Virus record (IMG/VR): IMGVR_UViG_2541047958_000001
Coordinates: 1 to 20,148 of that record
DNA from: a virus
Taxonomy: Duplodnaviria; Heunggongvirae; Uroviricota; Caudoviricetes
Length of the DNA: 20,148 nucleotides
Reading direction: 5' to 3' (one strand)
Below, piece by piece: positions 1 through 18,467 of the stretch. A program made the translations under genes and the position numbers. The first letter of the stretch is position 1; each line of letters begins with the position of its first letter. Below the pieces are notes generated by a model. That model made no database searches. It was given only the letters and a program-made list of their open reading frames with translations, and was not told the origin of the DNA.

Positions 1-201
1 TTATTTATTCGATTTCTCTATATGGTGATTTAAAATCTCTGCTTTTGCCTCTTCATAAGTTAGCTTACCTCTTATAACTTCATCCTTTATTTTCTGGTAA
101 AATTCTGACCCGCGAGGATCTTTACCTGATAAATATAAGCTAGCCTCTGCTTTCCTAAATGCCTCAATCCTTTTTCTCTTCGTGGTCTCATCCATTTTCA
201 T
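1..201 (-). CDS. Small helical protein resembling VbhA/YhfG-type Fic antitoxins, with a variant motif
   Basis: Complete 66-aa ORF (ATG at 199-201, TAA at 1-3, AGGT SD-like element upstream). Basic N-terminus followed by A-S-L-Y-L-S-G, which aligns with the S-x-x-x-E-G inhibitory motif of VbhA/YhfG but has Ser where the Glu would be. AT-rich. Family assignment is from memory only. Confidence 0.4.
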   Translation of the reverse strand: MKMDETTKRKRIEAFRKAEASLYLSGKDPRGSEFYQKIKDEVIRGKLTYEEAKAEILNHHIEKSNK

Positions 202-214
202 TACTACCTATGTT

Positions 215-1162
215 TTAGTCAGTTGATGAGGTAAATGATATCATTTCGATAACTTCTATTCCTTTAGAATTAATTCTGTAGCATTCGTTTTTCGATTTCC
301 TGATGTATGAAAATGAATCTTTTTTTGTATTGCAATCTGTCTTAGAAAAAGCATCAAGTAAAAGAAAAGACTTCTGATGCTCTGGTATTATCTTTATTGA
401 AAAAACACTAATGAATAATAATGCAATTGCTGTCGATAATAGATCTGCAACTCTTAAGTAGCTATTCGAACATATGAGTATTTTTTTAAACCATATCATT
501 AAAATTAGTTTTGCTCTATTAATATCTTGTGCCATTGTTTTTGCAATGTATAATAGATTCTTTTTATTGGATGAAGTTGATTCTTTATTTGTTTTTTGCA
601 TTGCTTTGAACATGGTTACGATACCGAAAGCTAACCCGAAAACTAACAACATAATAACTTTGAAATCAACCTCTTGGTTTTTTTCAATCGTCTCTCTTAG
701 CATTGCAGAAAAAGTGATGGTCAAAATTACCGCGTAAAAGCATTGATAAGCAGTAATTCTTCCAAAGTATAAGTATATGAAAATGCTAAGGCCATAAATG
801 GATAGAGATAGAGGAATGGCCATTGCGAAAGCATAACCATAAGATGAGTATATTAAGTATTCCGGTTGAATATCGTAATCAAAATTAATTTTATGTTTTG
901 CATACCACATACAAATTGAAAAAATCAATACTGTTCCAATCCATTTAATGATGCTGTGCTCAATCATTTTATTGACGATTGTTTTTTTGTTGTTATAGGC
1001 ACAAAAAATGAATGCTACGGAGAGGAATAATCCACAAACTAAGAAGGTTTTATCTTGAAGTAATAATGGGAACTTCATGATTACAATGCAAGCAATCAGC
1101 AAATATATAATGGATACAATATTGAAATCAAAATTTGCAATGTGTTTTCTAATGTAACGCAT
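215..1162 (-). CDS. Polytopic inner-membrane protein of unknown function (about 8-9 predicted TM helices)
   Basis: 315-aa ORF, strongly AT-rich, repeated 15-25 residue hydrophobic stretches separated by short K/N-rich loops. AAGGA SD 9 nt upstream of the ATG at 1162, overlapping the integrase stop, so it appears co-transcribed downstream of the integrase. No catalytic motif recognised. Confidence 0.6.
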   Translation of the reverse strand: MRYIRKHIANFDFNIVSIIYLLIACIVIMKFPLLLQDKTFLVCGLFLSVAFIFCAYNNKKTIVNKMIEHSIIKWIGTVLIFSICMWYAKHKINFDYDIQPEYLIYSSYGYAFAMAIPLSLSIYGLSIFIYLYFGRITAYQCFYAVILTITFSAMLRETIEKNQEVDFKVIMLLVFGLAFGIVTMFKAMQKTNKESTSSNKKNLLYIAKTMAQDINRAKLILMIWFKKILICSNSYLRVADLLSTAIALLFISVFSIKIIPEHQKSFLLLDAFSKTDCNTKKDSFSYIRKSKNECYRINSKGIEVIEMISFTSSTD

Positions 1163-1172
1163 AAGATATCCT

Positions 1173-2246
1173 TTATTTCAACTTTAACGCTAAATCCTCA
1201 GCTTTTGGATGATAATACCGCATTAGCATTCTCGGGTCTTTATGCCCCGTGATTTTTGTCAGCTCGTGCATGGGGAAAATCTCAGCCAAGCGAGAGGTCG
1301 CTTCATGCCGGAGATCGTGAAATCTTAAATCTTTGAGGAAGGTGTCATCACATTGAGGTTTAGCTTGTTCATATCTTTCTCTGGCGCGCTTTACAGCTCG
1401 ATCAAAAGCGCGGGTGATCGCATCGGCACGCATTCCAAAAACCTTGTCATCAGCTTGTTTAGAACGCTCCTTTAGATTGGATAGTACCATAACAGCCTTT
1501 GTGGATAAGGGGACATCGCGAGCATTACCATTCTTAGTATCTGGCAGATGTGCAACTCGCCTATCAAGATCGATAAAGCGCCATCGAAGTTCTGCAATTT
1601 CGCTACGGCGCATGGCTGTCTCTAACGCCAGAAGAATGATTGCTGGCAATACTAATGAATGTGTTGCGGCAATGATATGTTCGATCTCGTTGGCTAATTC
1701 CTTTCCTGACGTAACACCGGTTTGCTCAGAAACTAAAGGCAGCGCTTCCAGGCGTCTGGTCCTTGAGTTCTTGGGTTGGGGTTTGCGAATGGCCTCTACG
1801 GGGTTCAGCAGGCTCTCCATGCCCCATTCTTTCCGCGAAACATTGAATACATGAGAAAGTAAGGCCAAACGCCTTAAAACAGTTGCAGGAGCATAAATTT
1901 TCAACCATTCATCTCTTAGCTTGGCGACATCGGCACTCCTGATGCTGGCCATATAGTTTTTTGCCAGCTGAGTGCCTTTTAGTATCCGCACCAATGATCG
2001 GTCTTGCACTGCTCCTTTTTTGTCGGGAACAATCTCTTTTTCATAGCGCGTTAGGGCTTCATACAATGTCGTAGATTCCGCTTCGCTGCGGCTAAGCCAA
2101 ACTCCTCTCGCCATTTCTGACTCGATCATTTTGGCCCAAGCATCTGCTTCTACTTTGGTGTTAAAGGTTTTGGTTTGAGAGGGAAAACCACGTTTACGGA
2201 TTTGAGCTTCCCATTGGTAGTTACCACGTTTGCGTATAGTCGCCAT
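1173..2246 (-). CDS. int: Tyrosine recombinase / integrase (unrelated in sequence to the int at 2398-3561)
   Basis: C-terminal catalytic signature: R in ETAMRRSE, HDLRHE box, tyrosine in LMRYYH. ORF track starts at a TTG (2276); an in-frame ATG at 2246 (MATIRKRG...) is the more likely start. Confidence 0.88.
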   Translation of the reverse strand: MATIRKRGNYQWEAQIRKRGFPSQTKTFNTKVEADAWAKMIESEMARGVWLSRSEAESTTLYEALTRYEKEIVPDKKGAVQDRSLVRILKGTQLAKNYMASIRSADVAKLRDEWLKIYAPATVLRRLALLSHVFNVSRKEWGMESLLNPVEAIRKPQPKNSRTRRLEALPLVSEQTGVTSGKELANEIEHIIAATHSLVLPAIILLALETAMRRSEIAELRWRFIDLDRRVAHLPDTKNGNARDVPLSTKAVMVLSNLKERSKQADDKVFGMRADAITRAFDRAVKRARERYEQAKPQCDDTFLKDLRFHDLRHEATSRLAEIFPMHELTKITGHKDPRMLMRYYHPKAEDLALKLK

Positions 2247-2334
2247 TTCTGTCTGATTCCTAACGAACTGTGGCAATATTGTGGCAAAAAATCTATTTAA
2301 ATTCGATAGGTATTGATTTTACAGGACCAATTTA

Positions 2335-2383
2335 CGCATTCGTAATGCGAAGGTCGTAGGTTCGACTCCTATTATCGGCACCA
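2335..2383 (+). other. 3' 49 nt of tRNA-Thr(CGU) (thrW-like): anticodon loop TTCGTAA, T-arm GGTTCGACTCC, acceptor 3' strand plus CCA; att core copy
   Basis: Sequence cgcattcgtaatgcgaaggtcgtaggttcgactcctattatcggcacca carries the T-loop, an anticodon loop with CGT, and terminal CCA; the 5' half of the tRNA is absent (upstream sequence does not fold as D-arm or acceptor). It lies 15 bp beyond the stop of the P22-type int. Confidence 0.8.
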
Positions 2384-2397
2384 TTTAAATCAATAAG

Positions 2398-3561
2398 TTA
2401 CACATCATTAGTACCTTCCTTATTTTTTGACTGGGACAAATTTGGGACCGATGGGTTCAGGATCGAGTCTATTTGCCGTGCGTGTTCGGTAAGGTGATTA
2501 GGTGCAAGGTGAGCATATCGACGAACCATTTCGATAGACTCCCAGCCTCCCATTTCCTGTAACACTGACAACGGGACTCCGGCTTGAACCAGCCAACTTG
2601 CCCAGGTGTGTCTCAAGTCGTGAAATCTGAAATCATCAATACCAGCCCGTCTCAGCGCCGCTTTCCAGGCTGTGTTTGCGTCATACCGCATCTTCCTTAC
2701 TGTTGGCGCTTTCGTTCCGTCTGGTTTGGTACAGCTTTCCTTGTACACAAATACCCAACGGTGATGATTCCCGATTTGTTTTTTCAATACGCGACATGCA
2801 GTATCATTCAGCGCAACGCCGATTGCGCGGTTTGATTTACTCTCTTCCGGGTTTATCCATGCCACCCGGCGCTGCATATCTATTTGTTGCCATTCAAGGT
2901 TGATGATGTTCGAGCGTCTTAAGCCTGTTGCCAGTGCAAATTCAACAACAGACTTTAATGGCTCCGGACATTCATCAATCAGCCTTTGTGCTTCATGGGG
3001 CTCCAGCCAGCGGATCCGTTTATTCTTTGGTTGAGGCACTTTAATAATTGGTGCCTTATCCAGCATTTTCCATTCACGCTCTGCGGCTCTTAGTAGGGCT
3101 TTTATAAATGAAAGATGCGTAGCCTTCGTTGCAACAGACGCTGGTTTTGGCGTGTATTCTGGAACAGGTTTCCCTTTTTTTCTGCATGCTTCTTCCCTGA
3201 GTTTCCAGTTTTCCTCATTACGCCGGTTCGTCATTTTCTGCATTGCTGAATAAATTTTTGATTCAGTAATGTCTCTTAGTTGCATTCCTGCGAAATGTTG
3301 AAGCCAGAACCCGATCCGGCTTTTGTCATCGTCCAGTGATTTTTTATGTGCTTTCTCTTCAAGCCACCTGACACACGCTTCCTCGAACGTTATATCAGGT
3401 ATTTCACCAAGTTTGCTGACCCGCCATGCTTCAGCCTTTAGCTTGTCATGGAGTTCTGTCGCCTGCCTTTTGTCCTTTGTTCCAAGAGACTGTTTAAATC
3501 TTTTACCGTTCGGCAATGTGAAACTGGCGTACCATATTTCACCTCTGCGGAAGAGTGACAT
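2398..3561 (-). CDS. int: Phage integrase, P22/lambdoid type (tyrosine recombinase)
   Basis: 387-aa ORF with HDLRH box and RYAH catalytic tyrosine region; closely resembles the P22-family integrase as I recall it; 3' end abuts the tRNA-Thr att core, as expected for attL-int. Confidence 0.92.
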
Positions 3562-3788
3562 TTTCTTTCCTCTGTTATGCCATCACCCGCGCTCACCTTG
3601 ATAGTATGCAGCGGAGACTGAAGCGCCGCAATGCAGGCTTGTCGCGTTGTGAGGTAAGGAGATTTTGGTTTAGTGGGGTCTTTGCGTGTTGCCTGTAGGC
3701 GGCCTGTTCGTATCCAGTTGGTAGCGGTAGGTCTGGATATCTTGAGAAACTGACAGGCCTCATCGAGTGTGAGGCTGTATGATTCCAT
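3438..3788 (-). CDS. xis: Excisionase (Xis), P22-like, 116 aa
   Basis: ATG at 3788 preceded by a GAGG SD 5 nt upstream (ORF-track GTG start at 3818 is probably an upstream extension); lies directly upstream of int and overlaps its 5' end in another frame; basic helix-turn-helix-like N-terminus. Confidence 0.7.
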
Positions 3789-4038
3789 GGTTACCTCTGC
3801 TTTTTGAACGCATGTCACGTAACTTCTTAATGTGTTCTGCCGTTTCGATCTCTTCTGCTATCCGATCTGCATCAGCTTTATTCACAGGTTCAAAGTCATG
3901 ATTAAAGCGGAACATGCTGGCGATACATGTTCTGCCTTTTCGGATGTAGTGAACTTTGTTGTGGGTAGAACGCAGGATTTTGCAGGGAGTGCCGTGGTGG
4001 TCGACGTACCAGGTGTTAGGAAAAATGATTCTGAACAT
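3760..4038 (-). CDS. Hypothetical prophage early protein (92 aa, Cys/His-rich)
   Basis: ATG at 4038 with GAGGTG SD 7-8 nt upstream; compact ORF overlapping the xis start by 29 nt; no family recognised with confidence. Confidence 0.45.
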   Translation of the reverse strand: MFRIIFPNTWYVDHHGTPCKILRSTHNKVHYIRKGRTCIASMFRFNHDFEPVNKADADRIAEEIETAEHIKKLRDMRSKSRGNHGIIQPHTR

Positions 4039-4085
4039 TTTTACACCTCAGTTGGACGATGTTGAAATTTGCTGCTTTGAGGCCA

Positions 4086-4304
4086 TCACAGTCCCCATTG
4101 TTTGTTCTTAAGTTCGATCTCCTCCTGGCAACTTGCACAAGTCCGACAACCCTGAACGGCCAGGCGTCTTCGTTCATCTATCGGATCGCCACACTCACAA
4201 CAATGAGTGGCAGATATAGCCTGGTGGTTCAGGCGGCGCATTTTTATTGCTGTGTTGCGCTGTAATTCTTCAATTTCTGATGCTGAATCAATGATGTCTG
4301 CCAT
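4086..4304 (-). CDS. TraR/DksA-family C4 zinc-finger protein (72 aa)
   Basis: Two CxxC pairs (CCEC ... CRTC) in the C-terminal half after an acidic helical N-terminus, which is typical of phage TraR-like RNA polymerase-binding proteins. Confidence 0.6.
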   Translation of the reverse strand: MADIIDSASEIEELQRNTAIKMRRLNHQAISATHCCECGDPIDERRRLAVQGCRTCASCQEEIELKNKQWGL

Positions 4305-4613
4305 CTTTCATTAATCCCTGAATTGTTGGTTAATACGCTTGAGGGTGAATGCGAATAATAAAAAAGGAGCCTGTAGCTCCATGATGATTTTGTTTTTCAT
4401 GTTCACCGTTCCTTAAAGACGCCGTTTAACATGCCGATCGCCAGGCTTAAATGAGTCGGTGTGAATCCCATCAGCGTTACCGTTTCGCGGTGCTTCTTCA
4501 GTACGCTACGGCAAATGTCATCGACGTTTTTATCCGGAAACTGCTGTCTGGCTTTTTTGATTTCATAATTAGCCTGACGGGCAATACTGCGAAGGGCGGG
4601 TAATGACTCCAAC

Positions 4614-5117
4614 TTATTGATAGTGTTTTATGTTCAGATAATGCCCGATGACTTTGTCATGCAGCTCCACCGATTTTGAGAACGACAGCGACTTCCGTCC
4701 CAGCCGTGCCAGGTGCTGCCTCAGATTCAGGTTATGCCGCTCAATTCGCTGCGTATATCGCTTGCTGATTACGTGCAGCTTTCCCTTCAGGCGGGATTCA
4801 TACAGCGGCCAGCCATCCGTCATCCATATCACCACGTCAAAGGGTGACAGCAGGCTCATAAGACGCCCCAGCGTCGCCATAGTGCGTTCACCGAATACGT
4901 GCGCAACAACCGTCTTCCGGAGCCTGTCATACGCGTAAAACAGCCAGCGCTGGCGCGATTTAGCCCCGACGTATCCCCACTGTTCGTCCATTTCCGCGCA
5001 GACGATGACGTCACTGCCCGGCTGTATGCGCGAGGTTACCGACTGCGGCCTGAGTTTTTTAAATGGCGGAAAATCGTGTTGAGGCCAACGCCCATAATGC
5101 GGGCGGTTGCCCGGCAT
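4614..5117 (-). CDS. insB: IS1 InsB (expressed as InsAB' by -1 frameshift)
   Basis: 167-aa ORF matching the IS1 transposase catalytic part; overlaps insA in the -1 frame. Confidence 0.93.
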
Positions 5118-5311
5118 CCAACGCCATTCATGGCCATATCAATGATTTTCTGGTGCGTACCGGGTTGAGAAGCGGTGTAAGTGAACTGCAGTTGCCATGT
5201 TTTACGGCAGTGAGAGCAGAGATAGCGCTGATGTCCGGCAGTGCTTTTGCCGTTACGCACCACCCCGTCAGTAGCTGAACAGGAGGGACAGCTGATAGAA
5301 ACAGAAGCCAC
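5036..5311 (-). CDS. insA: IS1 InsA
   Basis: 91-aa [46 protein letters not shown]... (zinc finger plus HTH), canonical IS1 InsA. Confidence 0.93.
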
Positions 5312-5471
5312 TGGAGCACCTCAAAAACACCATCATACACTAAATCAGTAAGTTGGCAGCATCACCCGAAGGGCGTTTTCTTGCTGAGGTGTCATTGAAC
5401 AAGTCCCATATCGGCAAGCATAAGCACACAGAATATGAAGCCCGCTGCCAGAAAAATGCATTCAGTGGTTG

Positions 5472-5663
5472 TCATACCTGGTCTCTCTCATCTGCTTCTG
5501 CTTTCGCCACCATCATTTCCAGCTTTTGTGAAAGGGATGTGGCTAACGTATGAAATTCTTCGTCTGTTTCTACTGGTATTGGCACAAACCTGACTCCAAT
5601 TTGAGCGAGGCTATGTGCCATCTCGATACTCGTTCTTAACTCAACGGGAGATGCTTTGTACAT
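5472..5663 (-). CDS. Lambda orf63-like small early protein (63 aa)
   Basis: 192-nt ORF overlapping the upstream orf60a-like gene by 28 nt, the same length and overlap geometry as lambda orf63 as I recall it. Confidence 0.5.
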   Translation of the reverse strand: MYKASPVELRTSIEMAHSLAQIGVRFVPIPVETDEEFHTLATSLSQKLEMMVAKAEADERDQV

Positions 5664-5818
5664 ACAGCCCCTCGTTTATTATTTATCTCCTCAGCCAGCC
5701 GCTGGGCTTTCAGTGGATTTTGGATAACAGAAAGGCCGGGAAATACCCAGCCTCGCTTTGTAACGGAGTAGACGAAAGTGATCGCGCCTACCCGGATATT
5801 ATCGTGAGGATGCGTCAT
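5636..5818 (-). CDS. Lambda orf60a-like small early protein (60 aa)
   Basis: ATG at 5818 overlaps the exo stop (ATGA overlap), same arrangement as lambda orf60a; the ORF track gives a start two codons upstream at 5824. Confidence 0.5.
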
Positions 5819-6495
5819 CGCCATTGCTCCCCAAATACAAAACCAATTTCAGCCAGTGCCTCGTCCATTTTTTCGATGAACTCCGGCACCATCTCGTCAA
5901 AACTCGCCATGTACTTTTCATCCCGCTCAACCACGACATAATGCAGTCCTTCACGCTTCATACGCGGGTCATAGTTGGCAAAGTACCAGGCATCTTTTCG
6001 CGTCACCCACATGCTGTACTGCACCTGGGCCATGTAAGCCGACTTTATGGCCTCGAAACCACCGAGCCGGAACTTCATGAAATCCCGGGAGGTAAACGGG
6101 CATTTCAGCTCAAGGCCATTGCCGTCACTGCATAAACCATCGGGAGAGCAGGCGGTGCGCATACTTTCGTCGCGATAGATGATCGGGGATTCAGTAACAT
6201 TCACGCCGGAAGTGAATTCAAACAGGGTTCTGGCGTCGTTCTCGTACTGTTTTCCCCAGGCCAGCGCCTTAGCATTAACTTCCGGAGCCACACCGGTGCA
6301 AACCTCAGCCAGCAGGGTGTGGAAGTAGGACATTTTCATGTCAGGCCACTTCTTTCCTGAGCGGGGCTTTGCTATCACGTTGTGAACTTCTGAAGCGGTG
6401 ATGACGCCGAGCCGTAATTTGTGCCATGCATCATCCCCCTGTTCGACAGCTCTCACGTCGATCCCGGTACGCTGCAGGATAATGTCCGGTGTCAT
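5815..6495 (-). CDS. exo: Lambda-type exonuclease (Red alpha, Exo), 226 aa
   Basis: Protein [40 protein letters not shown]... is essentially lambda Exo along its full length (from memory). Confidence 0.95.
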
Positions 6496-7277
6496 GCTGC
6501 CACCTTCTGCTCAGTGGCTTTCTGTTTCAGGAATCCAAGAGCTTTCACTGCTTCGGCCTGTGTCAGTTCTGACGATGCGCGAATGTCGCGGCGAAATATC
6601 TGGGAACAGAGCGGCAATAAGTCGTCATCCCATGTTTTATCCAGGGCGATCAGCAGAGTGTTAATCTCCTGCATGGTTTCATCGTTAACCGGAGTGATGT
6701 CGCGTTCCGGCTGACGTTCTGCAGTGTATGCAGTATTTTCGACAATGCGCTCGGCTTCATCCTTGTCATAGATACCAGCAAATCCGAAGGCCAGACGGGC
6801 GCATTGAATCATGGCTTTATGCCGTAACATCCGTTTGGGATGCGACTGCCACGGCCCCGTGATTTCTCTGCCTTCGCGGGTTTTGAATGGTTCGCGTCGG
6901 CATTCGTCCATCCACTCGGTAACGCAGATCGGATGATTACGGTCTTTGCGGTAAATCCGGCATGTACAGGATTCATTGTCCTGCTCAAAGTCCATGCCAT
7001 CAAACTGCTGGTTTTCATTGATGATGCGGGACCAGCCATCAACGCCCACCACCGGAACGATGCCATTCTGCTTATCAGGGAAGGCGTAAATTTCTTTCGT
7101 CCACGGATTAAGGCCGTACTGGTTGGCGACGATCAACAATGCGATGAACTGCGCATCGCTGGCATCACCTTTAAATGCCGTCTGGCGAAGAGTGGTGATC
7201 AGTTCCTGTGGGTCGACAGAATCCATGCCGACACGTTCAGCCAGCTTCCCAGCCAGCGTTGCGAGTGCTGTACTCAT
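6492..7277 (-). CDS. bet: Lambda-type single-strand annealing protein (Red beta, Bet), 261 aa
   Basis: Protein [66 protein letters not shown]... matches lambda Bet (from memory); 4-nt overlap with exo. Confidence 0.95.
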
Positions 7278-7282
7278 CCGTT

Positions 7283-7579
7283 TTATACCTCTGAATCAAT
7301 ATCAACCTGGTGGTGAGCAATGGTTTCAACCATGTACCGGATGTGTTCTGCCATGCGCTCCTGAAACTCAACATCGTCATCGAACGCACGGGTAATGGCT
7401 TTTTTGCTGGCCCCGTGGCGTTGCAAATGATCGATGCATAGCGATTCAAACAGGTGCTGGGGCAGGCCTTTTTCCATGTCGTCTGCCAGTTCTGCCTCTT
7501 TCTCTTCACGGGCGATCTGCTGGTAGTGACGCGCCCAGCTCTGAGCCTCAAGACGATTCTGAATGTAATAAGCGTTCAT
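7283..7579 (-). CDS. gam: Gam (RecBCD inhibitor), short 98-aa GamS-type form
   Basis: ATG at 7579 with AGGAG SD gives [60 protein letters not shown]..., lambda GamS-like. The upstream in-frame extension (GTG at 7618) does not resemble the lambda GamL N-terminus. Confidence 0.85.
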
Positions 7580-7654
7580 GGCTGAACTCCTGAAAATGGC
7601 TGTGAAAATATCGCCCACGAAATGCCAGGCTGATTAGGAAAACAGGAAAGGGGA

Positions 7655-7945
7655 TTAGTGATTCAGGCCGTTACCGCGTCCGTCGAGAAAAACTTCCACG
7701 AGCAAATCACGGGTATAAGTGCGCTCGATGCCGCGATGCAGATAAAGCCGTCCGCGTAAATTAGCTGATGCAGTCCAGGTACCATCTTTGTGTTTGACCA
7801 GCATTCCTGGCATGACCGCACCTCGATTAACGGTCTGCGTTCCATAATGTTGATGAACCATAAAAACTCCTGCCCGTAAGCTGGGCTGCTGAACATATAG
7901 AGACTTCTGCGCGTATTCAGGCGGTGGATGGCCGCCGGTTGTCAT
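7655..7945 (-). CDS. Hypothetical 96-aa protein, first ORF downstream of the pL-like promoter (N position)
   Basis: ATG at 7945; weak GAGG 10-11 nt upstream; no arginine-rich N-terminal motif; an alternative overlapping 77-aa ORF (7663-7896) exists in another frame; coding status uncertain. Confidence 0.35.
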
Positions 7946-8099
7946 AACTAAGCCGCCTCGTTGAAGCGACTAAGGTATGAAATGTTGAGTTAATTTCAGC
8001 TGGTCACACCGACGTTCACGCGTCCGTTTCACCCCTCGCACTCCCCGAAGCCTGCTGAAATTCAAACTGCGGATCTAAGCGGTCATCGCAACGGTGAAT

Positions 8100-8230
8100 C
8101 AGGTAGTTGCCGTATCGTTGTGTTGTTGCGATGAACTTATTTAAAACTATAGTTGTTTTATCGTCAACAACAAAAGTTGTTTTATTGGTTGTTTTAGATA
8201 TAACTGGTTGTATTTAGGATGGATTTATTT
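8100..8230 (-). promoter_or_regulatory. oL/pL-like region: array of GTTGTT/AACAAC operator half-sites with a leftward TTGACG-17 nt-TTAAAT promoter-like element
   Basis: At least six GTTGTT/AACAAC half-sites, including the inverted pair AACAACAAAAGTTGTT; the same half-site appears in the oR palindrome at 10000-10024. Minus-strand -35 TTGACG (8167-8162), 17-nt spacer, -10 TTAAAT (8144-8139). Coordinates in this stretch could not be cross-checked against an ORF. Confidence 0.4.
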
Positions 8231-8307
8231 TGTGACTTGCATCGCACAGCGATAACTGAAGCGAGGTCGTGGTGGTTTTTTGAACGGTTTGTGTGATGAG
8301 GGGAGGC

Positions 8308-8335
8308 AAAAGAAAACCCGGCACGACGGCCGGGG
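8308..8335 (-). terminator. Intrinsic terminator immediately 3' of the 287-aa gene
   Basis: Minus-strand hairpin CCCGGC-CGUCGU-GCCGGG followed by UUUUCUUUU, beginning 4 nt after the stop codon at 8339-8341. Confidence 0.55.
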
Positions 8336-8338
8336 AAA

Positions 8339-9202
8339 TCATTTCGCATCTACAATAAATAACCTGTTTATCTGGCCTTTTTTAACAGTAGCCTTTGCGG
8401 TTATAGTGAATACTGCAGATGGATCACCTTTGGTTGATATATATGCACTAAGAGCTCTAATATACGGGTTATTCTTCTTTCCTGCAGCTGGATCGCTAAT
8501 TTCAGCAGTGATTCTCTTTTTTGAGTCATCACCATCTAAAATTATTTTAGCTGTCATATTTTGTGCATCAAATTCTGTAAGAAAAGCACGATACTCACGA
8601 AGACCGAGAACTTCATCATCATCAAGCCTATCAATTTCAGCTTTATCTCTCTCGTTAACTTTTAGAAGGCAGCCGTCAACATTTGTTGCAACACTTATCT
8701 GATCGCAAGTATTACCAATAGGTGATACTGCCTGCCTTACAGAGGGGCGAAGCTCTACAGCCATTCGGTCAATCAAAGAGATCAACTTATCAATGGTTCC
8801 AGCATCCTTGTTTCCTAGTGCCTCTATGGCCTTTTCAAGTGACTGCTGCAAAGCTTTCATTTCATCTTTCTTGTTAGAATTTCTCGCAAAAATATATTGT
8901 AGTATTGCGCCAAGTATAGTTGCGGCGATCCCCGAGAACAACTGGTTCTGAGTGGCGAAGTTAAGAACTGCTTCAAGAGTAAAGCAGTTAGCTTTTGCTT
9001 CGCGTGCGTAAACCTTAACTTCCTGATAATTAATGTATTTACTATATTTTTGTGTAACAGAGAAAGAAGCTGCTGTTGAGAGAACTTTAGAAAAACCCTT
9101 TAGGGATTCTCCTAGGCAGTTCAAATCTATTTCATGATTTAAAGCATCTTTTCCGTCATACCTAAGAGAGATTTTTATATCCTGTAAAGCGTCACAATCC
9201 AT
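8339..9202 (-). CDS. Orphan 287-aa protein of unknown function in the immunity-region moron slot (rexAB-equivalent position)
   Basis: Co-oriented with and 66 bp downstream of cI, followed by its own terminator and then oL/pL; clearly more AT-rich than the flanking phage genes; one central hydrophobic helix ([18 protein letters not shown]) followed by a charged coiled-coil-like segment; no family recognised. Confidence 0.7.
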
Positions 9203-9268
9203 AAATCGCTCTCGTCTAATTCTAATTAAATTTACTATCCCCTAAACGACTCATCAGCACAGTACTGA

Positions 9269-9958
9269 TTATCCATGTTTCCTGTACGTCTGGGGCATGC
9301 TCCCAATAACCTTACCGAAGATGAACACCCGGTTCATCTCGTCTTTCTCGATCGGGTCCCACGGTGAGTAGCTCTTGTTATCAGAGATAACCAGCAGCTT
9401 ATCCTTCATCATTTGCAGGCGCTTTACATGGGCTGTGTCGTCGTACAGAAACGCATAGATACCATCACCGTCGAAAGATTTAACCGTGATATCAACGAAC
9501 AGCAGATCACCTGGTTCGATCGTTCCTGACATGCTGTCACCACGCACGTTAATGATGCGGATATTTTCCGCCTTCCTACCATCGAACATGTGACGAGCAT
9601 CGTCAAACGAGTACTCAACCGAGCGTAGAACTTCTACAAACTCACGGTTGATGACTCCCGGCCCAGCACTGACTTCTATATCAAGAACGTCAATCTTGAA
9701 GTATTTGGAATGGCTGACAGTTGATTGTATTGGTTGCACTGTACTGTCTGACATATTTCCAACGCCAGAAGATAACCATTCTGCGCGCACACCCAAAGCG
9801 TTCGCGATCTCCACGATTTTAGTTGTTTGATTAGCTTTCCCTGTTTCGATTTTCTGAATAGCAGCCTGGCTAACCCCGACCAAATCCCCAAGCGCCTTTT
9901 GTGTAAGGCCTCGCGCTAATCTGGCTTCTTTAAGTCTTTCTGAGAGTGTTGTTTTCAT
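9269..9958 (-). CDS. cI: CI-type prophage repressor (HTH_XRE N-domain plus S24 LexA-like autopeptidase C-domain), 229 aa
   Basis: HTH LTQKALGDLVGVSQAAIQKIETGK; Ala-Gly cleavage site in EVSAGPG; Ser nucleophile in RGDSMSGT and Lys in HVKRL. Start taken at ATG 9958 (MKTTLSERL...), because the ORF-track extension to 10024 runs through the operator/promoter region. Confidence 0.85.
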   Translation of the reverse strand: MKTTLSERLKEARLARGLTQKALGDLVGVSQAAIQKIETGKANQTTKIVEIANALGVRAEWLSSGVGNMSDSTVQPIQSTVSHSKYFKIDVLDIEVSAGPGVINREFVEVLRSVEYSFDDARHMFDGRKAENIRIINVRGDSMSGTIEPGDLLFVDITVKSFDGDGIYAFLYDDTAHVKRLQMMKDKLLVISDNKSYSPWDPIEKDEMNRVFIFGKVIGSMPQTYRKHG

Positions 9959-10062
9959 AGTCCAAATGTACAACCAAGGTTTTATTCCATCAAACGAAAA
10001 TGGTTGTTGACTAAAAACAACCATAGTTTTAATCTTGATTCAAATTAACCACGGAGGTTGTT
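9959..10062 (+). promoter_or_regulatory. oR/pR/pRM-like divergent control region
   Basis: Perfect 9-bp-arm inverted repeat ATGGTTGTT-N7-AACAACCAT (10000-10024) overlapping a rightward promoter: -35 TTGACT (10007-10012), 17-nt spacer, -10 TAATCT (10030-10035), then GGAGG SD (10053-10057) 5 nt before the cro ATG. Confidence 0.6.
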
Positions 10063-10293
10063 ATGAACCCAGCTATCAAAACAGCGATCAATATCGTTGG
10101 TTCACAAAAGAAACTGGGCGCTGCTTGCGAAGTTTCACAGCAGGCCGTCTATAAGTGGCTTCACAACAAAGCAAAGGTATCCCCTGAACATGTCGGCAGC
10201 ATTGTTACGGCTACTGGTGGAGTAGTGAAGGCATACCAGATTCGCCCGGATCTTCCGAAGTTGTTTCCACACACCGAAAAGAACGCAGCTTAA
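10063..10293 (+). CDS. cro: Cro-like HTH regulator (76 aa)
   Basis: Divergent from cI across the operator region; helix-turn-helix (KKLGAACEVSQQAVYKWLHN); strong SD. Confidence 0.8.
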   Translation: MNPAIKTAINIVGSQKKLGAACEVSQQAVYKWLHNKAKVSPEHVGSIVTATGGVVKAYQIRPDLPKLFPHTEKNAA

Positions 10294-10305
10294 ATTTCCA
10301 TTTCA

Positions 10306-10318
10306 CGCTCTTTAACAA
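10306..10318 (+). promoter_or_regulatory. boxA-like element (CGCTCTTTAACAA) in the cro to cII-position intergenic region; nutR-like
   Basis: Matches the boxA consensus CGCTCTT(T)A and the rrn-type extension AACAA; I could not find a convincing boxB hairpin downstream. Confidence 0.3.
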
Positions 10319-10362
10319 TAAGCAATCAACTTAACAGTCAATTCAAACTAAAGGAGTCAATT

Positions 10363-10902
10363 ATGCAACCACTTACATACCAACAGACTAGCGGATTTAG
10401 CCCGACTGCGGTGATAAATCGTTCTCAAACAAAACAGGTGCCAGGCCACGAAAAAATCCGTGATGCCGTCCGCGCCTGGTCGGCTGTAGATAATCAGGAT
10501 GTCGTTGCCACACTCATTGTGAATGAGTATCGGGAGCAGGGCGGCGGCACCATCGATTTCCCTGATGATGTCAGCCGTGCACGCCAGAAGCTGTTCCGCT
10601 TCCTCGATAACAAATTCGATTCTGAAAAATACCGAAATAACGTGCGTGAACTGACCCCGGCAATTCTGGCGGTACTACCGCTGGAATATCGCGGTTACCT
10701 GGTTGAGCAGGATAGCTTCATGGCTAGGTTGGCTGAAATGGAAAAGGAACTCAGTGAGGCAAAACAGGCTGTCATTCTCAACGCACCACGCCACCAGAAA
10801 CTGAAGGAAATTAGTGAAGGTATTGTGTCGATGTTTCGTGTGGACCCAGATCTGGCTGGTCCATTGATGGCGATGGTTACTACCATGCTGGGGGCGATAT
10901 GA
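10363..10902 (+). CDS. CII-position regulator, 179 aa (CII/CP76/YdaT-like)
   Basis: Position immediately after cro, AAAGGAG SD; family assignment by position and size only, from memory. Confidence 0.5.
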   Translation: MQPLTYQQTSGFSPTAVINRSQTKQVPGHEKIRDAVRAWSAVDNQDVVATLIVNEYREQGGGTIDFPDDVSRARQKLFRFLDNKFDSEKYRNNVRELTPAILAVLPLEYRGYLVEQDSFMARLAEMEKELSEAKQAVILNAPRHQKLKEISEGIVSMFRVDPDLAGPLMAMVTTMLGAI

Positions 10903-10988
10903 CAGGTTCAGAAATGGCGAAAGCCGGTCTGCTGGAACAGAACCGACTTTCAGGTGCAAATCGTAACACACTCATTGCGGGAGGAATT

Positions 10989-11918
10989 ATGGCAAACACT
11001 GCTGAGATATTCAATTTTCCAGTGCCGGATGCGGCACAAAAGGAGCCGCGCGTGGCAGATCTCGATGATGGTTATACGCGCATTGCAAATGAGTTGCTGG
11101 AAGCTGTGATGCTGGCCGGATTAACACAGCACCAGCTTCTGGTCTTCCTAGCTGTCATGCGCAAAACATATGGCTTTAATAAAAAACTGGATTGGGTGAG
11201 CAACGAGCAACTGTCCGAATTGACCGGGATATTGCCGCACAAGTGTTCTGCTGCAAAAAGTGTTCTGGTAAAGCGTGGGATTCTTATTCAGAGCGGGCGG
11301 AATACCGGCATTAATAATGTGGTCAGTGAATGGTCAACATTACCCGAATCAGGTAAGAAAAATAAAGTTTACCTGAAAGAGGTAAATTTACCTGAATCAG
11401 GTAAAAAAAGTTTACCCAAATCAGGTAAAGACGTTTACCCGAATCAGGTAAACACAAAAGACAAACTAACAAAAGACAATATAAAACCTTTTTCGTCCGA
11501 GAATTCTGGCGAATCCTCTGACCAGCCAGAAAACGACCTTCCTGTGGAGAAACCAGATGCTGCAATTCAGAGCGGCAGCAGGTGGGGGACAGCAGAAGAC
11601 CTGACCGCCGCAGAGTGGATGTTTGACATGGTGAAGACCATCGCGCCATCAGCCAGAAAACCGAATTTTGCAGGGTGGGCTAACGATATCCGCCTGATGC
11701 GTGAACGTGACGGACGTAACCACCGCGACATGTGCGTGCTGTTCCGCTGGGCATGCCAGGACAACTTCTGGTCCGGTAACGTGCTAAGTCCGGCCAAACT
11801 CCGCGACAAGTGGACCCAACTCGAAATCAACCGTAACAAGCAACAGGCAGGCGTGACAGCTAGCAAACCAAAACTCGACCTGACAAACACAGACTGGATT
11901 TACGGGGTGGATCTATGA
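10989..11918 (+). CDS. O: Replication initiator O (lambda O family)
   Basis: N-terminal domain DLDDGYTRIANELLEAVMLAGLTQHQLLVFLAVMRKTYGFNKKLDWVSNEQLSELTG resembles the lambda O DNA-binding domain; ori iterons embedded in the linker-coding part; ATG at 10989 with GAGGA SD (the ORF track extends upstream to 10899). Confidence 0.85.
   Translation: MANTAEIFNFPVPDAAQKEPRVADLDDGYTRIANELLEAVMLAGLTQHQLLVFLAVMRKTYGFNKKLDWVSNEQLSELTGILPHKCSAAKSVLVKRGILIQSGRNTGINNVVSEWSTLPESGKKNKVYLKEVNLPESGKKSLPKSGKDVYPNQVNTKDKLTKDNIKPFSSENSGESSDQPENDLPVEKPDAAIQSGSRWGTAEDLTAAEWMFDMVKTIAPSARKPNFAGWANDIRLMRERDGRNHRDMCVLFRWACQDNFWSGNVLSPAKLRDKWTQLEINRNKQQAGVTASKPKLDLTNTDWIYGVDL
11340..11495 (+). repeat. Replication origin: five iterons TTTACCYRAAWSAGGTAA (starting 11340, 11368, 11387, 11411, 11434) followed by an A-rich tract
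   Basis: Five direct repeats, each an internal inverted repeat TTACC...GGTAA, spaced 19-28 bp, inside the O coding sequence, followed by ACACAAAAGACAAACTAACAAAAGACAATATAAAACC. Confidence 0.75.
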
Positions 11919-12133
11919 AAAACATCGCCGCACAGATGATTAACTTTGACCGTGAGCAGATGCGTCGGATCGCCAACAACATGCCGGAACAGTACGACGA
12001 AAAGCCGCAGGTACAGCAGGTAGCGCAGATCATCAATGGTGTGTTCAGCCAGTTACTGGCAACTTTCCCGGCGAGCCTGGCTACCAAAGGTGGGAAGCTG
12101 GAACTGACCATCACTGAACTGGGAGATGAATGA
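11915..12133 (+). pseudogene. Remnant of replication protein P (first ~57 codons lambda P-like, then 15 unrelated codons and stop)
   Basis: MKNIAAQMINFDREQMRRIANNMPEQYDEKPQVQQVAQIINGVFSQLLATFPASLA matches the lambda P N-terminus (from memory); lambda P is about 233 aa and the ORF here ends at 72 aa. Confidence 0.6.
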
Positions 12134-12270
12134 TGTTTGAGTCTTATATGGCAGAACGTCTTCGCCGCCGCTGGGTGCGCCTGCGCTTATATCGTTTCCC
12201 CGGTTCTGTTTTGACCGATTACCGAATACTGAAGAGTTACGCCAAAACCCTGACAGGAGCAGGAGTATGA
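12130..12270 (+). CDS. Small basic protein, 46 aa (YlcG-like)
   Basis: ATG overlapping the P-remnant stop; MMFESYMAERLRRRWVRLRLYRFPGSVLTDYRILKSYAKTLTGAGV; lies just upstream of Q, as ylcG does in DLP12-type prophages (from memory). Confidence 0.4.
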   Translation: MMFESYMAERLRRRWVRLRLYRFPGSVLTDYRILKSYAKTLTGAGV

Positions 12271-12355
12271 AGTCAGAGATAACAATCAACTAATACTGTT
12301 TTGTTGATTTTTGCTTGTAATTGGCGTTTTGGTCTGATTTTTGTGGAGTAAGTTG

Positions 12356-12739
12356 ATGCGTGATATTCAGATGGTTCTTGAGCGTTGGGGAGCGTGGGCG
12401 GCTAATAATCATGAAGATGTGACCTGGTCGTCCATTGCCGCCGGTTTTAAGGGATTAATTCCTTCAAAAGTAAAATCTCGCCCGCAATGTTGTGACGATG
12501 ACGCGATGATCATTTGCGGGTGCATGGCCCGTCTGAAAAAGAACAACAGCGATTTGCACGATTTATTAGTAGATTATTATATAGTCGGTATGACATTCAT
12601 GTCACTGGCAGGTAAGCATTGCTGCTCTGATGGTTATATCGGGAAAAGGTTACAAAAGGCTGAGGGCATAATTGAAGGGATGTTAATGGCATTAGATATC
12701 CGGTTAGAGATGGATATCGTTGTTAATAACTCTAATTAA
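12356..12739 (+). CDS. Q: Late-gene antiterminator Q (phage 21/82 / QuuD type), 127 aa
   Basis: ATG at 12356 with GGAG SD; Cys-rich zinc-binding region ([12 protein letters not shown] ... HCC); last gene before the late/lysis region. Confidence 0.8.
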
Positions 12740-12772
12740 TACGCCAATTATTTACTAAAAGTTATTAAAAAT

Positions 12773-12912
12773 GGGGCGTTGAAGCGCCCCCAAAAATAAA
12801 GGGTAATATATAACAGAAGGTTTGTATAGTTAGAAGCAAGGTTGTGCTTCTAAAGGAAGTGGCTTGAGGGAGCCACTTATATGTTGGGGAGGCAAAGCCT
12901 CCCACAACATAT
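12773..12912. terminator. Cluster of four stem-loops between convergent Q and porin genes (12773-12790 with U-run on the minus strand; 12832-12851; 12857-12878; 12879-12912)
   Basis: GGGGCG-N6-CGCCCC followed on the minus strand by AUUUUU; long near-perfect palindrome ATATGTTGGGGAGGC-AAA-GCCTCCCACAACATAT followed on the plus strand by CUUUU; probably porin 3' UTR and terminators. Confidence 0.45.
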
Positions 12913-12927
12913 CTTTTAGTAATCAAA

Positions 12928-14010
12928 TTAGAACTGGTAAACCATACCTACAGCAACGATATCATCGGTAGCAACGCCAGATGCTTTCGTGAAATCGCTC
13001 TTATCAATCAGGTTGATTTTGTAGTCAACAAAAGTGGACATATTTTTGTTGAAGTAATAGGTTGCACCTACATCAACATATTCAACCAGGTCCTGATCAC
13101 CCCAAACACCCAAGTCTTTTCCTTTAGAATGCAGGTAAGCAACGGATGGACGCAGGCCGAAGTCGAACTGATATTGTGCAACAGCTTCGAAGTTTTGTGC
13201 TTTGTTGGCAATATGGTTATTACCAAAAACAGTCATGTTCTGGGTTTCAGAATAGGTGGTGGCCAGATAGATGTTGTTCGCATCATATTTCAGACCAGCT
13301 GCCCATACTTCAGCATTTTGACCAGAAGCATTCAGACCGTTGTTACCGTAGATAACCTGATTATTAGTGCGATCAGATTTAGCATAGGTTGCACCCACGC
13401 CGAATCCTTCATACTCATAAGTAGTTGAGAAACCGAAACCATCGCCATTAGCTTCAGTTACTTCATTTCGGTCATTTTTGCCCTGATACTGAGCTGCAAA
13501 GTTCAGGCCATCAACCAGACCAAAGAAGTCGTTGTTACGATAAGTTGCAACACCTGTGGTGCGACCAGTCATGAATACATCTGTTTGGGTCCAAGTATCG
13601 CCACCGAATTCTGGCAGAACGTCGGTCCATGCACCAATATCGTATGCTACACCGTAGTTACGGCCATAATCGATGGAGCCGTAGTCACCGAATTTCAGGC
13701 CAGCGAAGGCAAGACGGGTTTTATCTTTGGAGGAACCTTGAGATTCAGCGCGGTTGCCTTTGAATTCATATTCCCACTGACCGAAACCAGTCAGTTGATC
13801 GTTGATTTGGGTTTCACCTTTGAAGCCAAGACGGGCATAAGTAGTATCACCATCATCTGCATCATTAGAGGAGAAGTAGTGCTTAGCATTAACTTTCCCG
13901 TACAGATCCAGCTTGTTACTGTCTTTATTATAAATTTCAGCTGCCTGAGCAGACATCGCCATCAGTACTGATGCAGCTACAGCAGAAATTGCCACTGTTA
14001 ATTTTTTCAT
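12928..14010 (-). CDS. nmpC: General diffusion porin of the OmpC/OmpF/PhoE family (NmpC/Lc-type, phage-borne moron), 360 aa with signal peptide
   Basis: Signal peptide [29 protein letters not shown]; beta-barrel sequence with C-terminal ...VAVGMVYQF; sits between Q and the holin on the opposite strand. Confidence 0.9.
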
Positions 14011-14438
14011 CGTGAGCCCTTTTTTTTGAACTATTATTAAAAAATGATGTCACTGCGCGATAAATATTCATCTAATCAATGTGATTATTTCAAGATGTAA
14101 GTTTTGGTTTCTCGTTTGATTTGTGAAGTAGATCTCTATTTTTATCTGAACTTTTTTCTATCGAATCCTATTCATAGCTCTTGGCTGAATAAAAATAAAT
14201 CTATTAGCCAATTTATATTAACGGTTGTTATTTATAAGTGCTCTATAATTTGAAGGTTCAATTTAAATTGGCTAAAAATAACACTGGAAATTATTTGTTG
14301 GTTATTTGTTGAGATTTGCTTATGTATTTGTAGTGGTGTTTTCAATACTCGGTAGCATTCTCGCAAATATCATTTAGTGGTTTACGTACGTAAAAAATTG
14401 GTTATGCTGTTAAGAGTGGTTACTTCGTCACACAGCTT

Positions 14439-14471
14439 AAACCCGCCGTCGAGCGGGTTTTTCCATTTTTT
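14439..14471 (+). terminator. tR'-like intrinsic terminator upstream of the lysis genes
   Basis: AAACCCGC-CGTCGA-GCGGGTTT hairpin followed by TTCCATTTTTT, about 110 nt upstream of the holin start; position consistent with the Q-modified terminator of the late operon. Confidence 0.5.
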
Positions 14472-14583
14472 GAGTCTCGATATTAGCTGATAACCCAATA
14501 CCTGAGTTATTCACTGACTCCGAGTCTGTTACGTTTCGTAGTATTCCCTCAATTTACACCCGCTTTGTCTGCGAGGTGGGGTT

Positions 14584-14799
14584 ATGAAATCCATGGATAA
14601 GTTAACAACGGGTGTCGCCTATGGCACCTCAGCAGGTAGTGCCGGGTACTGGTTTTTACAGTTGCTCGATAAAGTCACGCCCTCACAGTGGGCGGCAATA
14701 GGTGTGCTGGGTAGTCTGGTATTTGGCCTGCTGACGTACCTGACAAACCTTTATTTCAAGATTAAAGAAGATAAGCGCAAGGCTGCGAGAGGTGAATAA
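14584..14799 (+). CDS. S: Class II holin/antiholin, phage 21 S-type pinholin (71/68 aa dual start)
   Basis: [26 protein letters not shown]...: two start Mets separated by a Lys (dual-start motif), two TM helices, charged C-terminus; GAGGTGG SD. Confidence 0.9.
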
Positions 14800-15296
14800 T
14801 GCCTCCATCATTACGAAAAGCAGTTGCTGCTGCTATTGGTGGCGGAGCAATTGCTATAGCATCAGTGTTAATCACTGGCCCAAGTGGTAACGATGGTCTG
14901 GAAGGTGTCAGCTACATACCATACAAAGATATTGTTGGTGTATGGACTGTATGCCACGGACACACCGGAAAAGACATCATGCTCGGTAAAACGTATACCG
15001 AAGCAGAATGCAAAGCCCTCCTGAATAAAGACCTTGCCACGGTCGCCAGACAAATTAACCCGTACATCAAAGTCGATATACCGGAAACAACGCGCGGCGC
15101 TCTTTACTCGTTCGTCTACAACGTGGGTGCTGGCAATTTCAGAACATCGACGCTTCTTCGCAAAATAAACCAGGGCGATATCAAAGGCGCATGTGATCAG
15201 CTACGTCGCTGGACATACGCTGGAGGTAAGCAATGGAAAGGACTGATGACTCGTCGTGAGATTGAGCGTGAAGTCTGTTTGTGGGGGCAGCAATGA
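14799..15296 (+). CDS. R: SAR endolysin (T4 lysozyme-like muramidase with N-terminal signal-anchor-release domain), phage 21 R-type
   Basis: Weakly hydrophobic Gly/Ala-rich N-terminus [20 protein letters not shown] followed by a GH24 lysozyme fold; start overlaps the holin stop. Confidence 0.9.
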
Positions 15297-15712
15297 GCAG
15301 AGTAACCGCGATTATCTCCGCTCTGATTATCTGCATCATCGTCTGCCTGTTATGGGCTGTTAATCATTACCGTGATAACGCCATCGCCTACAAAGAGCAG
15401 CGCGACAAAGCCGCATCCACTATCGCTGATATGCAGAAGCGTCAACGTGATGTAGCAGAACTCGACGCCAGATACACAAAGGAGCTTGCTGATGCTAACG
15501 CGACTATCGAAAGTCTTCGTGCTGATGTTTCTGCTGGGCGTAAGTGGCTGCGCGTCAAAGCTGTCTGTCCAGACATGCATAAAATCACCGCCGCCTCCGG
15601 CGTGGATGATGGCACCAGCCCCAGACTTACTGACACCGCTCAACGGGATTATTTCACCCTTAGAAAGCGGATTGAAACCAGTGATAAAATGATCCGAGGC
15701 TTGCAGCAATAA
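15293..15712 (+). CDS. Rz: Rz i-spanin
   Basis: ATG at 15293 overlapping the endolysin stop (ATGA); N-terminal TM helix [20 protein letters not shown] then a coiled-coil periplasmic domain. Confidence 0.8.
15486..15692 (+). CDS. Rz1: Rz1 o-spanin (lipoprotein) embedded in Rz in the +1 frame
   Basis: Lipobox LGVSGC after a hydrophobic signal peptide, proline-rich mature part ([18 protein letters not shown]), entirely inside Rz. Confidence 0.7.
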
Positions 15713-17127: not shown

Positions 17128-17132
17128 ATCCC

Positions 17133-18421: not shown

Positions 18422-18439
18422 TGCAAAATGTTTTATGTG

Positions 18440-18467
18440 AAACCGCCTCCGGGCGGTTTTGTCGTTT
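18440..18467 (+). terminator. Stem-loop AAACCGCC-TCCG-GGCGGTTT followed by a U-poor tail, between I and J
   Basis: 8-bp stem, 4-nt loop, followed by TGTCGTTT; weak terminator or attenuator. Confidence 0.3.

Follow-up and report, generated by a model that had tools for sequence, protein, structure and literature searches.

The window analysed here is the whole 20,148-nucleotide (nt) stretch of IMG/VR record IMGVR_UViG_2541047958_000001 (positions 1 to 20,148), which is catalogued as a tailed virus. At its left end lies a gene encoding a 315-aa membrane protein, hereafter Mem, enclosed between the gene of a tyrosine integrase (int) and a small open reading frame (ORF), and for which an initial annotation had proposed a role as accessory cargo of a genomic island. 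We describe this locus, the mobile island to which it belongs and the functions that Mem may fulfill. Of the anatomy and the genomic context of Mem we can be highly confident, and the features of the locus are the following.

Positions 1 to 201, minus strand: small ORF annotated 'VbhA family', 66 aa, cytoplasmic.
Positions 202 to 214, minus strand: spacer of 13 nt from the Mem stop to the start of the small ORF.
Positions 215 to 1162, minus strand: Mem gene, 948 nt, 315 aa, ATG start; predicted inner-membrane protein.
Positions 1163 to 1172, minus strand: spacer of 10 nt between int and Mem, AGGATATCTT, carrying a Shine-Dalgarno sequence.
Positions 1173 to 2246, minus strand: island tyrosine integrase, 357 aa from the ATG at 2246, the start annotated in the twin locus described below.
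Positions 2335 to 2383, plus strand: 3' fragment of tRNA-Thr(CGU) and attachment (att) repeat, 49 nt spanning the anticodon arm through CCA; it marks the side of the island on which int lies.

The ORF list bears out the 315-codon frame on the minus strand, and the arrangement initially described proved accurate in its details: the Mem start codon lies 10 nt past the integrase stop (TAA at 1173-1175), the junction reads TAA-AGGATATCTT-ATG with an AAGGA Shine-Dalgarno sequence overlapping this stop, the 66-aa ORF begins 13 nt beyond the Mem stop, and the three genes share the minus strand. The AT bias noted for Mem is equally marked, with a GC content of 0.297 versus 0.464 for the integrase of the adjacent prophage; the small ORF and the island integrase have GC contents of 0.348 and 0.466, and the GC content at third codon positions is 0.30 for Mem and 0.43 for the island integrase. 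The latter is identified by Pfam (Phage_integrase, E 9e-27) and by PHROGs (PHROG 1, integrase), and its open frame reaches further, to a TTG at 2276. In the twin locus L001 (E. coli strain E3), which is 100% identical to the window over positions 1-2400, a consensus scan found no promoter-like or terminator-like site between int, Mem and the small ORF, and it located a hairpin 5 nt past the stop of the small ORF. Because no separate promoter or terminator was found between these genes, their co-transcription, as initially proposed, is plausible, if short of demonstrated. Mem is translationally coupled to int. An 87-aa ORF (474-737, plus strand) also runs antisense within Mem; hydrophobic and of low complexity, it most likely arises merely from the AT-richness of the region.

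Eight to nine transmembrane (TM) helices had been anticipated in Mem, but both hydropathy analysis and an AlphaFold model (pLDDT 72.6, one usable model out of five) give seven. The predicted topology, to which charge counts also contribute (19 Lys/Arg per 90 residues in the predicted cytoplasmic loops versus 7 per 42 in the three short predicted periplasmic loops), leaves the N-terminus inside and the C-terminus in the periplasm. It includes a Lys-rich cytoplasmic loop of 54 residues (186-239), a conserved loop predicted to be periplasmic (residues 89-107, holding N93, Y96 and I98) and a C-terminal beta domain of about 55 aa (residues 261-315), likewise predicted to be periplasmic. In the alignment of the family, whose members share 19-57% identity, only I98, D270, C277 and C294 are invariant and N93, Y286 and K289 near-invariant, all of them confined to two regions, loop 89-107 and the C-terminal beta domain; C277 and C294 may form a disulfide. 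Short relatives (213-231 aa) lack the middle helix pair, yet they keep both conserved elements. From hydropathy, charge distribution and the AlphaFold model, Mem is thus predicted to lie in the inner membrane with its conserved surface toward the periplasm.

We take Mem to be a real gene because it has homologues in several genera and because its ratio of nonsynonymous to synonymous substitution rates (dN/dS) is 0.22-0.34 within a lineage, the values being 0.12-0.19 for Int, TrbL and TrbJ. It is a functional gene under somewhat relaxed selection. Diversifying selection on Mem was not seen within lineages (dN/dS 0.2-0.34); a value near 1 between the window copy and that of Pantoea KPR derives from about eight changes.

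Mem could be an enzyme acting at the periplasmic face of the inner membrane to modify the envelope (O-antigen, lipopolysaccharide or another lipid-linked glycan), in the manner of prophage conversion. Serotype-converting prophage genes resemble the present arrangement, Mem being AT-rich, polytopic and adjacent to int as they are, and the invariant D270 together with the near-invariant K289, Y286 and N93 could build an active site. However, no acyltransferase-3, GT-C or other enzyme family matches Mem, and no gtrA/gtrB-type partner gene is adjacent; moreover, in the 213-231-aa members, which have fewer TM helices, all that is retained is the loop plus the small C-terminal domain. Membership in the Wzy/O-antigen ligase family, of which a large periplasmic loop with catalytic Arg/His would be expected, was likewise rejected, Wzy_C being detected in one of 17 Mem-family members (E 0.35). 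The surface-modifying enzyme suggested initially, of Wzy/EpsG type in particular, thus gains no support, and we regard an enzymatic role as improbable.

A housekeeping transporter of the drug/metabolite transporter (DMT)/EamA type is practically untenable. The match of Mem residues 111-193 to Pfam EamA (PF00892; E 0.0025, 18.6 bits) speaks in its favor, but this score does not reach the gathering score of 28.2, covers half of one repeat and is found in one of 17 family members; in addition, Mem has seven TM helices versus about ten for two EamA repeats. Furthermore, just about 21 of the 5,426 E. coli genomes have the form of Mem found in the window (Mem-315), in each case within the island, and no core-genome synteny was found of the kind that, with clear transporter homology, the initial annotation had named as evidence against a mobile gene. 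Membership of Mem in the EamA/DMT family can therefore be considered effectively refuted.

The Mem family is a very small, uncharacterised family of Enterobacterales. A profile hidden Markov model search over all 1.84 billion representative proteins returned 21 family matches (E<=0.001), and 22 family clusters at 90% identity exist among 5.8 billion clusters (about 15 billion sequences), every named member being annotated 'hypothetical protein'. The exact window sequence is present on 298 contigs, its cluster at >90% identity spans E. coli, Salmonella, Klebsiella and Enterobacter, a 97%-identical copy was found in the genome of a Pantoea species, and species-representative genomes contain two Mem loci, both in Pantoea. 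Pfam and NCBIfam gave nothing above threshold for Mem, and with PADLOC-DB 2.0 neither Mem nor the small ORF had a match at E<=1. In PDB and BFVD, Mem had no structural or sequence match, a negative limited by the single usable AlphaFold model out of five. The only match in PHROGs was phrog_26661, a family of unknown function.

As to where Mem originates, a phage origin was rejected: tblastn of Mem-315, of the related 295-aa form Mem-295 and of the small ORF against 50,697 phage records returned nothing, and the three IMG/VR 'viral' contigs with Mem-295 (L027-L029) consist of the mobilizable island beside a prophage. The island was presumably catalogued as viral in these contigs since it adjoins prophages at the same tRNA site, and phrog_26661 may have entered the phage catalogue by the same route. 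An origin from plasmids or type IV secretion systems (T4SSs) was also rejected, the only homologue among 72,556 plasmids being carried by a Pantoea megaplasmid, near TIR and DUF6602 genes. Distant relatives of Mem occupy varied settings: one is inside a phage satellite, between primase and capsid genes, one neighbors an AAA_15 gene and a NotI restriction system, one shares a plasmid-like contig with genes for resolvase, CcdAB and ParA, and one adjoins a helix-turn-helix (HTH) gene and an integrase. No T4SS genes were found beside distant relatives in the loci examined.

The mobile nature of Mem is best appreciated from the island itself. Positions 1-2400 of the window match 15 of 5,426 complete E. 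coli chromosomes at 98.8-100% identity, and the genes beyond the left end of the window, whose inspection had been recommended in the initial annotation, were read in the twin locus. On the opposite strand, L001 contains a frameshifted ORF of about 70 aa, IncP-type trbL, a 57-aa ORF, trbJ, traJ and a 93-aa ORF without Pfam match, beyond which lie a HigA-like HTH gene, AAA-ATPase/HNH genes and insertion sequences. The 57-aa ORF (L001 13117-13290, and its equivalents between trbJ and trbL) can be considered TrbK-like on account of its signal peptide and LCSC lipobox-like motif; among the backbone proteins it has diverged furthest (49-54% identity between lineages), and one pairwise dN/dS of 1.38 was obtained for it from very few substitutions. 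Further copies of this backbone were found in Pantoea, Leclercia and additional E. coli strains: int and the slot behind it are followed, on the opposite strand, by the 70-aa ORF, trbL, the trbK-like gene, trbJ, traJ and the 93-aa ORF, beyond which come the HTH gene and anti-phage cargo that varies. L001 and seven related loci have int, Mem and the genes from the 70-aa ORF to traJ in common. Depending on the copy, this cargo comprises CBASS, GmrSD with HEPN and methylase genes, AAA and HNH genes, or DUF2326/MC6/SMEK genes.

The att core of the window (2338-2384) is found again, in direct orientation, at the opposite end of related islands, and repeats of 47-49 nt corresponding to the 3' end of tRNA-Thr are present at both ends in L012 (E. 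coli 1409, 15.3 kb apart), L010, L013 and L014. These direct repeats therefore place Mem on a site-specifically integrated island within a tandem array at tRNA-Thr and, with the near-identical protein found across genera, they uphold the initial view of a horizontally mobile, integrase-linked gene. No full tRNA was detected at 2335-2383, either by ARAGORN or by Rfam (22.6 bits versus a 29-bit threshold for tRNA). In every related E. coli genome, the NCBI pipeline annotates a 112-nt 'tRNA-Ser' at 2272-2383 (plus strand), which is probably a miscalled att-site pseudo-tRNA. In Candidatus Pantoea haifensis, a remnant of 2.7 kb between two att repeats (L014 8770-11563) retains only int and a frameshifted 315-aa gene.

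Integrative mobilizable elements such as GIsul2 and the 'IncP island' have been reviewed (PMC5704250), and a recent preprint describes the PIME family, whose members are mobilised in dependence on an IncP helper and carry defence cargo (bioRxiv 10.64898/2026.01.12.698999, January 2026). The present island appears to be an integrative mobilizable element of this known, GIsul2/PIME-like kind, as its gene content and ends indicate. Like these elements, it possesses a terminal tyrosine integrase, trbJ, a trbK-like gene, trbL and a traJ relaxosome-accessory gene and lacks a full T4SS; this combination of terminal integrase and IncP-type trbJ-trbK-trbL was found in L001 and in the seven related loci, the transfer genes lying outside the window, and the flanking direct repeats are those of L012, L010, L013 and L014. 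Helper-dependent mobilisation has been shown for PIME1 elements only, and PIMEs are reported to harbor an int-adjacent accessory region with a restriction system, to integrate at guaA and to have the alpA regulator and the repA replicase as core markers (bioRxiv 10.64898/2026.01.12.698999). Like PIMEs, the island carries a large defence cargo plus an additional accessory region on the int side, and, as in the PIME3 and PIME4 layouts, its transfer genes are opposite in direction to int. Unlike PIMEs, it integrates at tRNA-Thr, and neither repA nor a clearly assignable alpA is annotated in the stretches examined, the far ends not having been exhaustively searched. Since PIMEs use a site at guaA and need repA and alpA, two genes that were not seen here, the island looks like an undescribed tRNA-Thr sub-type. 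Mem is not mentioned in the published descriptions of PIMEs and GIsul2, the word 'membrane' occurring 0 times in the preprint (bioRxiv 10.64898/2026.01.12.698999).

The position directly behind int forms a fixed slot of this island. The island integrase is present in about 106 of 5,426 complete E. coli genomes, and the slot behind it is occupied by Mem-295 in 69 genomes (295 aa, 23-24% identical to the window Mem and with the same conserved motifs), by Mem-315 in 17-21, by Mem-309 in four (55% identical to the window Mem) and by an unrelated 465-aa protein annotated as 'tape measure' in 17. Together the counts nearly equal the number of integrases, so that virtually no slot is left empty, with the Mem family, in three very divergent lineages, accounting for about 85% of the occupants. 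Across the three lineages, the int-Mem spacing of 9-10 nt and an AGGA/GGA motif are kept. Between the window and strain T28R, the transfer genes differ by synonymous divergences (dS) of only 0.015-0.03 and the slot genes are unrelated, and between the window and YJ6, TrbL, TrbJ and TraJ are 97-99% identical (TrbL 97%), Mem merely 24%. The lineage of Mem hence does not follow that of TrbJ/K/L, and comparison of these copies indicates that the slot gene is accessory and exchanged by recombination. The description of Mem as accessory cargo was thus right, but not in the sense of arbitrary cargo: it holds a fixed, int-coupled position in which one family dominates.

Regarding the other occupant, the 465-aa protein (L024 7567-8964, E. 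coli T28R) begins with two TM helices, continues as a long coiled coil and ends in an acidic tail. Neither Pfam nor PADLOC returned a match for it (for PADLOC, none at E<=0.1 for either this protein or Mem-295), and its NCBI name 'phage tail tape measure protein' is probably wrong. In the Brenneria island, two small ORFs replace Mem. In some copies, extra genes stand between the small ORF and the 70-aa ORF, among them DUF4365 and, in L028, PD-T7-1-like (E 4e-83) and Argonaute-associated-nuclease-like genes (L028 9366-12965, L029 1284-4101), and the same region also holds a 461-aa gene and an IS3 element in some copies (L028/L029). The int-side region can therefore be considered a second hotspot of defence cargo.

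A small polytopic inner-membrane protein that is mobile, has a conserved periplasmic face and varies in its alleles at a fixed locus could also be an orphan immunity protein, protecting the cell from a bacteriocin or contact-dependent effector acting on the membrane or in the periplasm. Yet immunity genes normally lie beside the toxin gene or in orphan arrays at toxin loci, and no toxin gene was found nearby at any locus examined, so this explanation, also among those suggested initially, seems to us a poor candidate.

The relation of Mem to the transfer genes bears on another possibility, namely that Mem is a conjugation-linked factor of the island life cycle, ensuring entry exclusion or assisting mating together with TrbJ, the TrbK-like protein and TrbL while IncP plasmids are hijacked, or acting against sister islands. 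The entry-exclusion proteins known from conjugative elements reside in the inner membrane. Like RP4 TrbK, SXT/R391 Eex and F TraS, Mem is a predicted inner-membrane protein, is allelically diversified and belongs to an element that interacts with an IncP T4SS. The slot is filled in essentially every island copy, by Mem or by another membrane protein, and Mem (55% identity) and the TrbK-like protein (49%) are the most diverged backbone proteins, the others sharing 73-94%, as would be expected of specificity determinants. A role of TrbK in entry exclusion is documented (PMC5704250). However, Mem has no homology with RP4 TrbK, SXT/R391 Eex or F TraS, it probably rides on the int transcript and lies outside the transfer operon, and the island already possesses a TrbK-like gene. 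Near-identical transfer modules bear Mem-315, Mem-295 or the 465-aa gene, so that, unlike entry-exclusion proteins, Mem lineages do not co-vary with TrbJ/K/L. In addition, apart from the Pantoea megaplasmid, homologues of Mem are absent from IncP and other conjugative plasmids, its distant relatives are never beside T4SS genes, and the Brenneria island does without Mem. A conjugation-linked function is for these reasons rather unlikely.

The small ORF downstream of Mem raises a comparable question. Its 'VbhA-like' designation turned out to be solely a label of the NCBI pipeline; searches yielded no match to the VbhA model of Pfam or to the VbhA chain of the PDB. Fic antitoxins carry the motif (S/T)xxxE(G/N), in which the Glu is inhibitory, and in VbhA/VbhT-type (class I Fic) modules the antitoxin gene is immediately upstream of that of the Fic toxin (PMC3667792). 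The small ORF resembles VbhA in having a helix with the S-x-x-x-?-(G/N) spacing of the inhibitory helix, but it reads S-x-x-x-S-(G/N) (SLYLSG, SLFLSG or SLYLSN), a Ser standing at the Glu position in all variants seen. The gene order is reversed as compared with VbhA/VbhT, the small ORF being downstream of Mem, and no Fic gene was found in the loci examined around it. A VbhA-type Fic antitoxin was accordingly rejected. The small ORF has a weak SHOCT-like C-terminal motif, and a wider search returned close relatives only. It follows Mem-315, Mem-295 and the 465-aa gene in variants that are 62-75% identical (L025 7896-8114; L024 7377-7562, where it is unannotated in T28R) and is missing after Mem-309, so the Mem-309 lineage, to judge from these genomes, does not require it.

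This pairing could suggest an abortive-infection (Abi) or addiction module, with Mem as a putative effector or toxin that would damage the membrane and the VbhA-like protein as its restraint, the two forming a phage-triggered system or an island-stabilising toxin-antitoxin pair. Mobilizable islands often carry toxin-antitoxin modules. Here, the association of a membrane gene with the small ORF recurs with three upstream partners (separated by 13 nt, overlapping by 11 nt or separated by 4 nt) in a neighborhood rich in defence genes. Against this, Mem-309 is intact and under purifying selection, yet without the small ORF, and the conserved parts of Mem are periplasmic rather than pore-like TM segments. 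Moreover, the small protein has neither the inhibitory Glu nor a Fic partner, and its gene is downstream, whereas the antitoxin gene is upstream in class I Fic modules (PMC3667792). We consider such a module doubtful, and the Abi effector thus joins the surface-modifying enzyme and the immunity protein among the initial candidates for which no confirmation was obtained.

The role that we favor, with a probability of only about 0.35, is that of an exclusion or defence factor operating at the periplasmic face of the inner membrane. Mem would block the entry of foreign DNA into the island-carrying cell from its position in the inner membrane and through its periplasmic face, this DNA being that injected by phages or, less likely, that of a rival conjugative transfer, and its mode of action would be like that of prophage superinfection-exclusion proteins. 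The small cytoplasmic VbhA-like protein would assist Mem as an accessory, perhaps through binding to its Lys-rich cytoplasmic loop. Since Mem probably rides on the int transcript, it would be expressed constitutively, in the integrated, resting state of the island, without awaiting helper-induced transfer. This proposal draws on the defence-rich neighborhoods of both the island and the distant relatives, on the coupling to int, on the variable alleles in a fixed slot, on the independence from T4SS genes and on the predicted topology and the residue conservation of Mem.

The class of prophage membrane proteins for superinfection exclusion and lysogenic conversion includes P22 SieA, T4 Imm and HK97 gp15. 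Like prophage superinfection-exclusion and lysogenic-conversion proteins, Mem is AT-rich, borne by a mobile element and encoded near int and att; as with superinfection-exclusion proteins, it is predicted to be in the inner membrane, is likely expressed when the element is integrated and forms a single-gene module in diverse mobile elements. Unlike them, Mem is larger, with seven TM helices and a periplasmic Cys domain, and is carried by a parasite of conjugation, not by a phage. No similarity of Mem to this class emerged in Pfam, PHROGs, PADLOC, NCBIfam, PDB or BFVD, P22 SieA, T4 Imm and HK97 gp15 not having been compared with it individually.

Several observations weigh against the proposed exclusion or defence role. 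The main one is that the periplasmic domain is the most conserved part of Mem: such a domain may bind a conserved host component or be catalytic, a phage-recognition surface engaged in an arms race being expected to vary. Mem has no experimental or homology link to any exclusion or defence protein, PADLOC gave no match and the function of its PHROG match is not known; the fold-search negatives carry limited weight because the model is moderately confident and one in five was usable. Guilt by association is a weak argument for a single gene, and one distant relative has ychF and budAB as neighbors on an ordinary stretch of chromosome, a further one being likewise in plain chromosomal surroundings. 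Finally, IS1 elements or frameshifts break Mem in an appreciable fraction of the genomes, and this frequency of disruption indicates that Mem is dispensable.

A broader and more speculative formulation of the exclusion role, to which we give less credence, considers the int-coupled slot as a whole. It would constitute an unrecognised envelope-level immunity module made of an interchangeable inner-membrane protein (one of the three Mem lineages or the 465-aa coiled-coil protein) and of a Glu-less VbhA-like adaptor, which would block the entry of DNA from phages or rival elements, or alternatively sense envelope events such as phage attack or assembly of the helper T4SS and pass the signal on to the island.

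The remainder of the window (2398-20148) corresponds to a lambdoid prophage. Along 54-60% of its length it is about 95% identical to Escherichia phages that carry Bet, cI, O, P and an OmpD porin. The stop codon of the prophage integrase is 14 nt from the tRNA fragment, and the window thus spans a tandem array of mobile elements at tRNA-Thr. Two low-GC patches of the prophage, 13751-14500 and 8500-9250 (0.31-0.35 and 0.38-0.40, respectively), may be accessory 'moron' genes.

Mobilizable islands that parasitize IncP plasmids have been recognised just recently as widespread carriers of anti-phage systems. While the context of the present island is of a known kind, and while nothing marks the uncharacterised and structurally unmatched Mem family as mechanistically unusual, this locus adds an Enterobacterales sub-type integrating at tRNA-Thr, a second site for cargo, whose place immediately after int is fixed, and the occupation of this site, almost always, by an orphan membrane-protein family without characterised relative. 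Should Mem act in the life cycle of the island, it would be a new player in plasmid hijacking. If its role in exclusion or defence is true, Mem would represent a new one- or two-gene family of envelope-level immunity that is spreading among E. coli, Salmonella, Klebsiella and Pantoea.

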